From a virus (lineage: Duplodnaviria > Heunggongvirae > Uroviricota > Caudoviricetes), in the IMG/VR virus record IMGVR_UViG_2513237200_000007: a DNA stretch of 47,685 bases. One strand, written 5' to 3'. Below, piece after piece: positions 5,857-14,140 of this stretch (its first letter is position 1; each line of letters opens with the position of its first letter). The notes beneath the pieces were generated by a model. It ran no database searches. It had not been told where the DNA came from and was given only the letters and a program-made list of their open reading frames with translations. A program made the translations under genes and the position numbers.

Positions 5857-6022
5857 GCTGACCTCATTTCCCCTTAACGCTGGGGTAGCGGAACTGTTTG
5901 CTGAGAACACCGTGCGGTGTGTTGATGCAAACAAGATTAGCCATGACTAACATATCGGTCAAGTGATTTTGTATGCTATAGCTAACATAATTGATGTGGT
6001 AAAAGATAACTCATTGATGATG

Positions 6023-6430
6023 TTATCTTTTATTTGTCCGCTGACGGGCTTTTAGTAATTCTTCAAAGAGTTTATTGAAGTTTTTTACTCGAGCTCGCAT
6101 TTCGGCGAGCTGGGTATCCTGTTCTGATTCTGGCAGTGCATTAAACAGCTCAAGGAGCTCTAGTTCTTTGGGGGATAAGGCAACTGGCTTCTCAACAGGT
6201 GGTGTTGGTTGCTTGTCTTCATCGCCAAATAGAATCCATGTTGGTGAGCATTGCAATACTTTGCTGAGGGCAAAAAGGTTCTTCCCTGTAGGTTCACTAT
6301 CACCCCGTTCCCATTGTGATACAGACACATGGGAGATTTTCAGGGCTTTAGCAAGAGACCTTTGGGTGTGTTTGAGGTTTTTCCGACGATACCTGATGCG
6401 TTCGCCGATAGTTAAATTTTTTGTTTCCAT
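6023..6430 (-). CDS. dicA: HTH (XRE/cI-like) repressor DicA
   Basis: 135 aa, METKNLTIGERIRYRRKNLKHTQRSLAKALKISHVSVSQWERGDSEPTGKNLFALSKVL... with clear HTH_XRE motif; divergent from dicC. Confidence 0.85.
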   Translation of the reverse strand: METKNLTIGERIRYRRKNLKHTQRSLAKALKISHVSVSQWERGDSEPTGKNLFALSKVLQCSPTWILFGDEDKQPTPPVEKPVALSPKELELLELFNALPESEQDTQLAEMRARVKNFNKLFEELLKARQRTNKR

Positions 6431-9101: not shown

Positions 9102-9621
9102 AACCCACTGGATTATTTTTATGAAAGAGGCATCCAGTGAGTAGATTCGTAAGGCTACAGATACGTATATCTGAATAATTAAATTCAGTTCTGTAAATAA
9201 AATTTAATCCTTAACCGGATGGATTTCTGCACCCTCAGAACATCAGGAGGCCGCCCGAAAGGGCGGTAGTGAAATGCGAAAGTTCAAAATTATTATTGAA
9301 ACGGGAATAGCTGGTGGAGATTTTGAGGATGTATTCGAAGTGGACGATGACGCAACACCTGAGGAAATTCATGACGGAGCATAAGAAATTTTCTTTAACT
9401 ACTGCAATTACTCATACCACGAAATAAAAGACGATGAGGAAGAACAAAGTGGCTGATTTTTGTTCAGCTAAATATAACATCAGTTTTGAAGAGCGGGATG
9501 AACTATTAATGGACTATGGTGAGTTACGCGGTGGAAGTGCTGCTGATGTCGAATCCTAGCGTGATGACTATGAAGCGGGAAAAACTCCGGTCGAAGCATA
9601 TTGTGATGAGTGGGGCGATGA

Positions 9622-9909
9622 ATGAGCGAGATTAATTATCAGGAAGGGCATGAAACGGCGGGGCAAGCAAAACCAGTGGCATGGCGATATCGCTACGTGA
9701 AAAAAGGCGTTACGGACTTTCAGGGGAAGTAGTGGTCTGGTGACTGGAAATATGTACCGAAAAAAGAGGATTGTAACGACAGGCCGAACTATCAAATTCA
9801 GGCCTTATTCACTGCCTCACCAGTCCCAGTTACATCAGAAGAACTGGTTAAAGCTGTGCACTTTTATGAACAACTAAAACGCGAAAATCCACCAACATCC
9901 GGCAACTAG
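9622..9909 (+). pseudogene. small ORF interrupted by a single in-frame amber codon (TAG 9730-9732)
   Basis: MSEINYQEGHETAGQAKPVAWRYRYVKKGVTDFQGK-TAG-WSGDWKYVPKKEDCNDRPNYQIQALFTASPVPVTSEELVKAVHFYEQLKRENPPTSGN; 36 codons, stop, then 58 open codons in the same frame. Confidence 0.3.
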
Positions 9910-10163
9910 ATTAATGGATTAACTATGTCGGTTAAACGACCAGCCAACTGAAAAAGCGGAAACCTGATTACAGGTTGCCAGATAAGGCAATGAGCTACCT
10001 GGCGCGGAACGGACTGATAAGTATGGGGAATGTTTTACGATGAACCTTTAGACTAAAGAGTTTGTAACGCTATGTAAGTGATTTTTTCTGGTTTAGATAT
10101 TTATATGTCCGGCCAAATTGAGGTGTGTTTAAATGTAATTGCACATTGATTGTAGGAGGAATA

Positions 10164-10343
10164 ATGAAAAACGCATTGCAGTTTTTGTTTGTTGCGTTCT
10201 GGTTGTTCGCATCATGTATGCCCATCATCTTCACAGCAAGGTATATGGAAAAAGTTGATGTTTTGATATTAATATTTGGATATATAAATGCCCTTTTTTT
10301 AGGGGTGTTCATGGCGGTCATGTGCATTGAATACTGGCGGTAA
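10164..10343 (+). CDS. small predicted membrane protein (59 aa, two hydrophobic segments)
   Basis: MKNALQFLFVAFWLFASCMPIIFTARYMEKVDVLILIFGYINALFLGVFMAVMCIEYWR; strong SD AGGAGGA 4 nt upstream of ATG 10164. Confidence 0.45.
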   Translation: MKNALQFLFVAFWLFASCMPIIFTARYMEKVDVLILIFGYINALFLGVFMAVMCIEYWR

Positions 10344-10599
10344 ATACAGCGAACTCCATTGGTTTAGTTGGATATTTACTGTGCTGGACAAAAACGGTTT
10401 GCGGGGAAATCTTAGTTAAGTAGAATGACTGCGGGTGCTTGAGGCTATCTGCCTCGGGCATGGACACCAACGGCAGATAGAGAAAAGCCCCAGTTAACAT
10501 TACGCGTCCTGCAAGACGCTTAACATTAATCTGAGGCCAATTTCATGCTAGACACATGTAGGTTAGCCTCTTACGTGCCGAAAGGCACGGAGAAGCAGG

Positions 10600-12050
10600 C
10601 TATTGTTAACACCAAGCTGTAATGTCCCCTTTGAACCATTCTAAAATGTCCCCAGACAATTCTCTCGTGGATTTTTCATGATCAAAGAGACTGTTACGAT
10701 GAGTCATAAGGAACTCCACCGACTTCAGATTATTCAGGAACAAGCTGCGGCACGCATTGGCATTTCTATTCGGCAGGTTAAACGTCTGGTGCAACGGTAT
10801 AGAAATGAAGGGCCTTCTGGTCTGGTTTCCCACCGACGTGGAAAGCGTCCTAATAATTCCTTTTCTACTGAATTCAGAGCAACAGTAATTTCACTCCTCA
10901 AAGGCCGTTACGCTGATTTTGGACCTACGTTTGCGTGCGAAAAATTGCGCGAGATACACGGTTTATCTTTATCCGTTGAAACTCTCAGAAAGTGGATGAT
11001 AGAAGAGGGGTTATGGCGTGAACGCCGTCGTAAAATTGCCCGTATATATCAACGCCGCATGCGACGACCATCTTACGGTGAACTGATCCAGATTGATGGC
11101 TCACCTCATGACTGGTTTGAAAATCGAGGCCCCAGATGTACACTGATCGTTTTCATTGATGATGCCACCAGTGCGTTGATGGCGTTGCGTTTTGTGCCTG
11201 CTGAAACAACCCGGGCTTACATGGAAACCCTCCGGGGTTACCTTAATGATCATGGCGTACCGCTCGCTCTCTACTCTGATAGACACAGTATATTCAGGGT
11301 AAATAACCCAGAGCGGGAAGGTGAGCTGACCCAGTTCACTCGTGCGATAAAGACACTGGGCATCGAGCCAATCCATGCCAACAGCCCGCAGGCAAAAGGG
11401 CGGGTAGAGCGCGCCAATCAGACACTACAGGACAGGCTGGTCAAAGAAATGCGGCTTCAGAATATCAGTGATATTGAAACAGCAAATGCATGGTTGCCGA
11501 CCTTTATTGAAGCCTATAACAACCGGTTCGCTACGTCGCCTCGTACTACTGATAATGCTCATCTTGATGTGCACCATTCTGAAGAGGAACTGGGTTATAT
11601 CTTCAGCCTACAGGCGAAGCGCGTTCTGTCTAAAAATCTCACTTTCCAGTACAAAAGCAGTGCGTTTCAGGTACGCAGTGAGGGCCGGGGATATCGACTT
11701 AGGCATTCGGTTGTTACTGTATGCGAGAACTTTGACGGTGAAATTAACGTTCTGTATGACGGGAAAGCGCTGGGCTGGGAAAAGTATGTTGATGGCCCGG
11801 AGCCTATACCACTGGATGATGAAAAGAGTGTCCATGAACGAGTGGATAATGCCCGTATTGATTTACGCTCAAAATACTATGTTAAACCTAAAGCTGACCA
11901 TCCCTGGCTTACGCGCCGAACGCAAAGTCATCAGCAAGTTAAGCCCCCGAAGTTACCTAAAAAGAAGCCTGATCCCGATAAAAAAGATTGAAACCAAGAT
12001 CGATTCGGTTGAGTGCATATCCATTCATAGGGTAGATTCTTAAGTCGCGT
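10600..12050 (+). mobile_element. insertion sequence carrying an rve-type DDE transposase (IS481/ISNCY-like); ends not resolved
   Basis: Single transposase ORF with flanking non-coding sequence, lying where K-12 Qin has only pseudogenes; I could not identify terminal inverted repeats by eye, so coordinates are approximate. Confidence 0.35.
10678..11991 (+). CDS. DDE transposase with N-terminal HTH and retroviral-integrase-like (rve) catalytic core
   Basis: 437 aa; N-terminal HTH (HRLQIIQEQAAARIGISIRQVKRLVQRY), catalytic D (IQIDGSPHDWF), D (YSDRHSIF), E (KGRVERANQTLQDRL). Possible alternative start at MSHKEL (10699). Confidence 0.8.
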   Translation: MIKETVTMSHKELHRLQIIQEQAAARIGISIRQVKRLVQRYRNEGPSGLVSHRRGKRPNNSFSTEFRATVISLLKGRYADFGPTFACEKLREIHGLSLSVETLRKWMIEEGLWRERRRKIARIYQRRMRRPSYGELIQIDGSPHDWFENRGPRCTLIVFIDDATSALMALRFVPAETTRAYMETLRGYLNDHGVPLALYSDRHSIFRVNNPEREGELTQFTRAIKTLGIEPIHANSPQAKGRVERANQTLQDRLVKEMRLQNISDIETANAWLPTFIEAYNNRFATSPRTTDNAHLDVHHSEEELGYIFSLQAKRVLSKNLTFQYKSSAFQVRSEGRGYRLRHSVVTVCENFDGEINVLYDGKALGWEKYVDGPEPIPLDDEKSVHERVDNARIDLRSKYYVKPKADHPWLTRRTQSHQQVKPPKLPKKKPDPDKKD

Positions 12051-13819: not shown

Positions 13820-13890
13820 ACCAAAGCATGACATCTCTGTTTCGCACCGAAGGTGACACTTCTGCTTTGCGTTGACAGGAGAAGCAGGCT

Positions 13891-14046
13891 ATGAAGCAGC
13901 AAAAGGCGATGTTAATCGCCCTGATCGTCATCTGTTTAACCGTCATAGTGACGGCACTGGTAACGAGGAAAGACCTCTGCGAGGTACGAATCCGAACCGG
14001 CCAGACGGAGGTCGCTGTCTTCACAGCTTACGAACCTGAGGAGTAA
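13891..14046 (+). CDS. hokD: HokD (RelF) small membrane toxin, 51 aa (below ORF-track cutoff)
   Basis: Hand translation from ATG 13891: MKQQKAMLIALIVICLTVIVTALVTRKDLCEVRIRTGQTEVAVFTAYEPEE, stop TAA 14044-14046; Hok family features. Confidence 0.8.
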   Translation: MKQQKAMLIALIVICLTVIVTALVTRKDLCEVRIRTGQTEVAVFTAYEPEE

Positions 14047-14114
14047 GAGACCCGGCGGGGGAGAAATCCCTCGCCACCTCTGATGTGGCAGGCATCCTCA
14101 ACGCACCCGCACTT

Positions 14115-14140
14115 AACCCGCTTCGGCGGGTTTTTGTTTT
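14115..14140 (+). terminator. rho-independent terminator after relBE-hokD
   Basis: Hairpin CCCGC-TTCG-GCGGG followed by TTTTTGTTTTT. Confidence 0.6.

Follow-up and report, generated by a model that had tools for sequence, protein, structure and literature searches.

A probable two-helix membrane-protein gene directly upstream of the hok/sok leader in Qin-type lambdoid prophages of Escherichia coli

The ORF59 locus and its neighbours

The window, the whole 47,685-nucleotide stretch of DNA that was analysed (IMG/VR record IMGVR_UViG_2513237200_000007), had been taken to be prophage-borne in an earlier sequence-only reading, and our comparisons identified it as a Qin-type lambdoid prophage of E. 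coli. In identical DNA from strain ATCC 8739 and other RefSeq records, the 5' part of this region carries dicA, dicC, a YdaT-family gene, a replication-protein-like gene, a DUF977 gene, a methyltransferase gene and two pseudogenes. An unannotated gap follows and, beyond it, an ISNCY-family transposase, ydfW, flxA, ydfV, relB, relE, hokD, rem, ydfU and the antiterminator gene ydfT. The gap holds ORF59, a + strand frame with its ATG at 10164 and a TAA ending at 10343 (coordinates include the stop), and its 59-residue product is exactly the one that the sequence-only reading had given. The strong Shine-Dalgarno (SD) sequence claimed for it is AGGAGG at 10154–10159 (+), read directly 4 nt 5' of the ATG, and AAA is the second codon. 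Across related loci the SD is dimorphic, with AGGAGG in ~135 and AGGGGG in ~106, or ~44% (the counts include loci fetched twice). The variant changes one A-U pair with the anti-SD to a G-U wobble, and pairing is kept.

ORF59 had also been described as unannotated. This holds for RefSeq, in which PGAP places no CDS on it in three records with 100% identical DNA and in which it is unannotated in every record checked, but not for the annotations of GenBank submitters, in whose records it appears under the name “hypothetical protein” or “membrane protein” on contigs that number in the thousands. Three phage records annotate an 84-85-aa frame on the opposite strand: PhiR42_1 calls this frame “hypothetical protein”, and vB_EcoS-640R1 and vB_EcoS-813R8 both call it “hornerin”. 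A literature search with peptide strings found no paper, the ORF59 peptide is not present in the supplements of the Sakai Ribo-seq small-gene paper, and an upstream ORF goes unmentioned in a recent hok survey. ORF59 is missing from K-12 through a deletion, which is probably why it has never been studied.

The placement of ORF59 immediately upstream of an IS is approximately right: the element starts at ~10604, 260 nt past the ORF59 stop, and the hok/sok promoter and leader lie in between. By our own reading, the probable hok promoter (TTGCGG, a 16-nt spacer and TAGAAT; 10399–10426, +) begins 56 nt past the ORF59 stop. The consensus scan did not flag this promoter; its position suits the start of the Rfam model at 10433. 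The hok mRNA 5' leader with the sok antisense region spans 10433–10603 (+; Rfam RF01794, 104 bits, E 1.4e-23) and is cut at the hok start codon, between GGCTAT and TGTTAAC. Nearly all sampled Qin-type copies of ORF59 have this leader downstream. It runs into an intact hok in loci L004 and L007 and, with no IS, in phage vB_EcoS-640R1 and in most IMG/VR relatives; homology to the window stops at ~10600 in 103 loci and goes on through the IS in 37. The sequence-only reading had noticed neither this leader, nor that most related phages are free of an IS here, nor the second subfamily described below.

Within the element, whose left end is at ~10604, lies a 437-aa ORF named by PGAP as an ISNCY-family transposase (10678–11991, +). 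PGAP splits this ORF into a “partial ISNCY family transposase” (10699–11721) and ydfW (11842–11991), and K-12 ydfW appears to be the C-terminal 49 codons of the transposase. An exact 15-mer, GGAGAAGCAGGCTAT, flanks a 3274-bp insert made up of the ISNCY element, ydfW, flxA, ydfV and relBE. Repeat search and alignment place its second copy at 13878–13892 (+), followed by hokD (13891–14046, +). From this arrangement, hokD, ~3.3 kb downstream, appears to be the coding part lost by the orphan leader at 10433–10603, and in Qin the relBE-hokD (relF) order looks like the outcome of an insertion that parted the hok leader from its CDS, which would explain a hokD without its own sok/mok. Just after hokD, at 14055–14136 (+), Rfam gave a hit to isrK that falls below threshold (25 bits, where the gathering score is 50; E 0.025); this hit ends in a GC hairpin and T-run and is probably only a terminator.

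On its upstream side, ORF59 lies in an AT-rich accessory cassette of ~347 bp (10044–10390), delimited by alignment and composition. GC content is 37% for 10044–10443 against 50% for the window, with a local minimum of 0.335 at 10100–10299; the segment 9000–9300 is also AT-rich. In three related loci (L172, L199 and L219) just ~80 bp separate the end of the upstream gene (...TTTTACGATGA) from the hok promoter, both identical to those of the window, where ~347 bp lie between them. The left border of the cassette is the stop of a frameshifted remnant of the last nin-type gene (9622–10043, +), a PGAP pseudogene in identical DNA, and the intact 140-aa form of this gene in L172 matches phrog_660 (unknown function). 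Farther upstream, a DUF7167 gene at 9274–9456 contains an internal stop and is likewise a pseudogene in identical RefSeq DNA. Both the DUF7167 gene and the phrog_660 homolog are intact in phage vB_EcoS-640R1 and L172. Among relatives, upstream homology ends at ~9960, 9880 or 9660, and these breakpoints indicate a conserved unit that extends roughly from 9960 through hok. A minus-strand terminator-like hairpin at 9961–9976 (AACCTGTAATCAGGTT then TCCGCTTTTT) coincides with the mosaic breakpoint at ~9960, which is common to 41 related loci. A seemingly conserved block ~120 nt 5' of the ATG was considered as a regulatory element and rejected, as it is the 3' end of the preceding gene.

Other small ORFs occupy the same slot elsewhere. 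L172 (4466–4549), as well as L199 and L219, has a 27-aa hydrophobic ORF (MTWPEAFTTTGIAMASALVVYSVCRWG) whose start codon shares bases with the stop codon of the gene before it (ATGA). In L204 the ORF in front of that hok promoter starts at a GTG, is ~30 aa long and has AGGAGG as its SD. Family searches gave no significant match for either the 27-aa or the ~30-aa ORF. In seven more loci the upstream gene is unrelated and a 6-codon remnant is all that is left.

The 5' region of ORF59 (10044–10230) showed no unusual fold when compared with shuffled sequences (z = +0.9; its fold was equalled or bettered by 160 of 200 shuffles) and does not sequester the SD. In a consensus scan of 9600–10750, neither strand had a promoter-like site and the + strand had no terminator; hand-read candidates for ORF59's own promoter were poor and were dropped. 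With neither a sigma-70-like promoter nor a terminator detected in the cassette, the Qin-type copy offers no support for expression while the prophage is repressed, as protection of the lysogen would need.

A second subfamily and the coding evidence

A phmmer search of 1.84 billion protein representatives recovered one further group of homologs, P0083/P0088, from E. coli and also 59 aa long. ORF59 and P0088 align end to end without gaps at 41% identity (24 identical positions), with 59% identity at the nucleotide level. A profile search with both subfamilies found no third one. Word-indexed and profile searches retrieved only E. coli and Shigella sequences, at ≥74% identity, and in a scan of one genome per GTDB species ORF59 occurred only in Shigella and E. 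coli. Of 5426 complete E. coli genomes, 1586 (29%) carry the 551-bp region around ORF59, in up to four copies each, and 1045 (19%) carry the paralog region, at ≥99% identity in nearly all. Carriers of one or the other subfamily include the UPEC strains UTI89 and 536 and the reference strain ATCC 8739, and ATCC 25922 is among the names listed.

The paralog resolves which product is conserved and on which strand. Many gene callers give a 72-aa form that starts at a GTG at 10125. This form was rejected: no SD precedes the GTG, and the paralog has an in-frame TAA six codons 5' of its ATG, so that the 59-aa form, not the 72-aa form, is the conserved product. The antisense 85-aa ORF (10070–10327, −) was also rejected as a gene, since its frame is interrupted by stops in the paralog, and the antisense annotations in the three phage genomes therefore look like wrong-strand calls. 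ORF59's + frame is the sole frame open in both subfamilies.

Divergence between the subfamilies has the pattern of a coding sequence. Nucleotide identity is 0.58, 0.71 and 0.47 at the first, second and third codon positions, making the third the most diverged. There are 24.8 synonymous differences on 34.7 sites compared with 48.2 non-synonymous differences on 142.3 sites, that is, pS 0.716 versus pN 0.338 and dN/dS ~0.19 (Fisher p 8.7e-5). By these comparisons, ORF59 is very probably a genuine protein-coding gene that has been under long-term purifying selection, and we hold with the same high confidence that the gene encodes a membrane protein.

The contrary reading takes ORF59 for a frame left open by chance in T-rich DNA, the real feature being antisense or non-existent. 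It draws on the missing PGAP call, on the choice of the antisense frame by phage annotators, on the ease with which hydrophobic frames arise by chance in T-rich DNA and on the lack of any synonymous polymorphism. Yet a stop-free run of this length is more than chance would give, with P = 0.027 in shuffles of the 400 nt at 10044–10443 (37% GC). In addition, start, stop and length are all retained in the paralog, with no gap, at 59% nucleotide identity, pS lies far above pN, the antisense frame is broken and the SD is retained. The paralog comparison thus largely refutes this reading, which we consider highly improbable.

P0088 resides in a decayed prophage islet, flanked by ttcA and uspF, of B2-type strains and some others, among them UTI89 (L162), 536 (L285) and JJ1887; in L155 it is found at 6001–6180. 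PGAP pseudogenes in the islet comprise an integrase fragment, a DUF1627 fragment and a frameshifted sit permease. No RefSeq feature covers P0088 in any record listed, and the region is present in just one IMG/VR contig. An extended −10 element, TGATATAAT, is perfect by our own reading at 5918–5926 of L155, 75 nt 5' of the P0088 ATG, and is not conserved in the window. About 50 nt past the P0088 stop lies a hok remnant (...VTKKDLHQVRI-stop-GGQMEVDIY, compared with ...VTRKDLCEVRIRTGQTEVAVF in HokD) that contains an internal stop. This remnant indicates that the linkage between the ORF and hok is older than the split of the subfamilies and that in the islet the ORF outlived hok.

Intactness, polymorphism and the link to hok

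The sequence-only reading had made conservation in related prophages a touchstone, and ORF59 proved to be conserved there and intact in most copies. Among protein-anchored loci in IMG/VR, 151 of 152 have a gapless, intact 180-nt ORF, with nine alleles in all. When loci were anchored on the hok promoter and leader, the cassette was present in 66 of the 77 informative ones and ORF59 was intact in 65 of these 66. Locus L217 has a frameshift in a T-run of ORF59. Several intact alleles are each found on ≥1000 contigs; truncated, frameshifted or IS-interrupted forms are found on 1–11 contigs each. ORF59 has 0.039 polymorphic sites per base, the lowest value in the module, versus 0.09 and 0.08 in the cassette flanks and ~0.2 farther out (range 0.08–0.21). 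In 14 loci of the paralog islet, 2 of 180 ORF sites vary versus 43 of 1080 flank sites, a comparison biased by the retrieval of eight of these loci through an exact protein match.

Every polymorphic site, eight of eight in the Qin-type copies and two of two in the paralog, is non-synonymous, and just one is at a third codon position. The amino-acid changes are mostly conservative (A/V, V/I, I/M, L/I, Y/H and M/T). The probability of ten non-synonymous sites out of ten is 0.11 under neutrality and 3e-4 at an omega of 0.19, and an MK-like table (8:0 versus 48:25) gave p = 0.054. This pattern fits relaxed constraint better than ongoing purifying selection; its cause may be a loosening of constraint in cryptic prophages, selection for diversity or chance.

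These data bear most directly on the view that ORF59 is a drifting relic, once selected in active phages, with no present role in the cryptic Qin-type prophages or the ttcA islet and still intact for lack of time. The all-non-synonymous polymorphisms and the borderline MK-like result are in keeping with it, as are the very low sequence divergence within each subfamily, the pseudogenes and disrupted genes that surround ORF59 in the window, and the existence of degenerate copies such as those in L007 and L217. Against drift, ORF59 is the least polymorphic segment of the module in both subfamilies, nearly every sampled copy is free of stops and indels (151/152 and 65/66), the AGGGGG variant of the SD preserves anti-SD pairing, and ORF59 is also present in deposited phage genome records with an intact hok following it. 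On balance, we regard the relic view as unlikely.

The AT-rich cassette is a target for IS elements: an IS1 lies between the upstream pseudogene and ORF59 in eight or more complete genomes, for example at ~1350–2120 of L288 (E. coli 25-07338). Several database proteins (P0026, P0035, P0037 and P0038) consist of ORF59 N-termini that run into unrelated sequence, and we read these tails as IS ends.

The constancy of the hok neighbourhood suggests a further possibility, in which ORF59 either protects against Hok or potentiates it in the membrane and the two genes form one module. ORF59 is directly upstream of hok in both subfamilies despite their 41% protein identity, the leader follows nearly every sampled Qin-type copy, and the slot before the same hok promoter in other phages is filled by other small hydrophobic ORFs, of 27 and ~30 aa. 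Common descent of the whole segment can, however, explain the linkage. Moreover, ORF59 is intact whether hok is intact, IS-disrupted (as in the 37 loci that resemble the window) or deleted (as for the paralog), hok loci with the same promoter exist without ORF59, and plasmid hok/sok systems work without such a partner. Coupling to Hok is therefore quite improbable in our estimation. An extended form, in which ORF59 and the small ORFs that replace it would be protein partners of Hok, with the inner-membrane hairpin gating or neutralising it, draws on positional evidence and is, if anything, slightly less probable still. Were this extended form true, it would add a protein-level layer to the RNA-controlled hok/sok of prophages.

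Predicted protein, proposed role and known systems

The product of ORF59 had been called highly hydrophobic, with two helices, and both descriptions agree with our analyses. Its GRAVY is 1.27, and two hydrophobic stretches (TM1, ~ residues 5–24, and TM2, ~34–55) are separated by a polar loop at residues 25–33. AlphaFold2, given a nine-sequence alignment, predicted helices at residues 2–26 and 31–58 with a mean pLDDT of 73. The paralog has a charge of +2 at its N-terminus and −2 in the loop, which favours an N-in orientation, and ORF59 is thus probably a helical hairpin of N-in/C-in topology with a short periplasmic loop.

Conservation between ORF59 and its paralog falls in three blocks, S17-C18-x-P-I-I-x-T24, F38-G-x-x-N-A-L-x-x-G-V-F49 and I55-E-x-W-R59, and the loop is variable (1 of 9 positions identical). 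With N-in/C-in topology, the first two blocks would be placed in the outer-leaflet half of the membrane. A conserved interface on one helical face was considered and dropped, as the identical positions are not clustered (P 0.67 and 0.94).

The sequence-only reading had recognised no family, and our searches agree: ORF59 has no Pfam, PHROG or NCBIfam match. Pfam returned no family at E values up to 10, and hence no hok/gef profile match, and PADLOC-DB 2.0 contained no defence-system profile for either subfamily. When profiles of curated families were compared with both subfamilies nothing was significant, the best being phrog_6298 (E 0.12, paralog only). A sequence profile search of the PDB with ORF59 gave no match, and the best Foldseek hits in the PDB (E 2.9) were generic TM hairpins. 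In these family and structure searches ORF59 had no sequence or fold similarity to known exclusion proteins.

We propose the following model, in which the topology, the mode of transcription and all activity are inferred. The cassette occupies the delayed-early (nin-type) region of Qin-type lambdoid prophages, directly 5' of the hok/sok promoter, and would most likely be transcribed by read-through from the early rightward operon. The product would be inserted in the inner membrane as a helical hairpin, both ends probably cytoplasmic, and would work there via protein-protein contacts made by the three conserved blocks. It would act as a non-lethal accessory factor that most likely either blocks the entry of other phages or modulates a host inner-membrane protein. 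We favour such a role over that of a killer toxin because ORF59 is almost always intact, has no evident need of a partner and is still present next to a decayed hok. The assignment of this activity is nevertheless tentative, a leading candidate to which we give somewhat less than an even chance, and the full explanation, which joins gene, hairpin, cassette, read-through and non-lethal activity, is put forward just as provisionally.

Toxicity, which the sequence-only reading had raised beside superinfection exclusion and abortive infection, would make ORF59 a membrane-damaging protein that oligomerises and dissipates the membrane potential, either as a solo killer of the lytic cycle or as an effector akin to those of Abi or type I toxin-antitoxin systems. 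A small and very hydrophobic product, encoded behind a strong SD with AAA as second codon, would suit this role, and in two diverged lineages it adjoins a true membrane toxin locus, hok/sok. The independent frameshifts and IS insertions in ORF59 are expected if its expression is costly, and the conserved Asn and two conserved Gly of TM2 would be compatible with self-association. However, the only antisense RNA family that Rfam returned was that of the sok/hok leader next door, no promoter-like site and no partner gene turned up, and the unremarkable fold of the 5' region leaves the SD accessible. The great majority of copies are intact, and the paralog has stayed whole in a decayed islet where the hok beside it is destroyed and no antitoxin is evident. 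Type I toxins, furthermore, typically have one TM helix and ORF59 has two. The toxin version of the earlier reading is thus somewhat disfavoured, and we judge it unlikely.

ORF59 is a testable candidate for the growing group of small membrane proteins through which prophages change the physiology of the host or its sensitivity to phages. Should it act on phage entry or on Hok, it would be a new component of Qin-type prophage biology; otherwise it would be an ordinary accessory gene. It also exemplifies the annotation gap for small genes, three phage genomes having been annotated on the wrong strand.

Several known systems resemble ORF59 in part. Class II holins and pinholins, such as S of phage 21, have two TM segments and ~70 aa. 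ORF59 is like them in size (~60–70 residues), in its two TM helices and predicted N-in/C-in hairpin, and in its lambdoid origin. Unlike them, it lies outside the lysis cassette, between replication-side genes and hok; in identical DNA the essD-ydfR-rrrQ-rzpQ lysis cassette is ~9 kb downstream, past the Q-type antiterminator gene ydfT. It also has no charged C-terminal tail, ending in ...IEYWR, and no dual-start motif. With both position and tail wrong, a holin identity was rejected.

With the Hok/Gef type I toxins ORF59 shares the character of a small hydrophobic inner-membrane protein of E. coli prophages, next to hok, and at 59 aa and a GRAVY of 1.27 it has the size and character of the small hydrophobic peptides (< ~60 aa) of type I systems. 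The architecture differs, as Hok/Gef proteins have one TM segment and a periplasmic tail in place of two helices, and the Pfam hok/gef profile does not match. Nor did we find a Sok-like antisense RNA, a mok-type coupling frame or a fold-back mRNA at ORF59.

DicB is a Qin small protein that inhibits inner-membrane phage receptors, according to the account in PMC6832061. Like DicB and the small regulatory membrane proteins of E. coli, ORF59 comes from a cryptic prophage of the Qin kind and could bind a larger host membrane protein. The two are unrelated in sequence, and DicB is encoded elsewhere in Qin, in the dicB operon.

The closest working likeness to ORF59 may be found in moron-encoded small inner-membrane proteins such as HK97 gp15 (YebO-like), which is an exclusion protein (PMC3594210). 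Judged by the Juhala/Hendrix definition of a moron, as that study summarises it, the cassette is extra DNA at the same position relative to related phages and deviates in GC content; unlike a classical moron, it showed no promoter or terminator of its own in the consensus scan. ORF59 differs from HK97 gp15 in having no sequence relationship to it, in its two TM helices, in its location in the early nin-type region rather than the tail operon and in an exclusion activity that is only putative. Like HK97 gp15, it is a small predicted inner-membrane protein, is dispensable for the phage and comes from additional DNA whose GC content stands apart and which related lambdoid phages do not have at that place. 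ORF59 represents a new protein family with a narrow distribution, of a kind that is already familiar.
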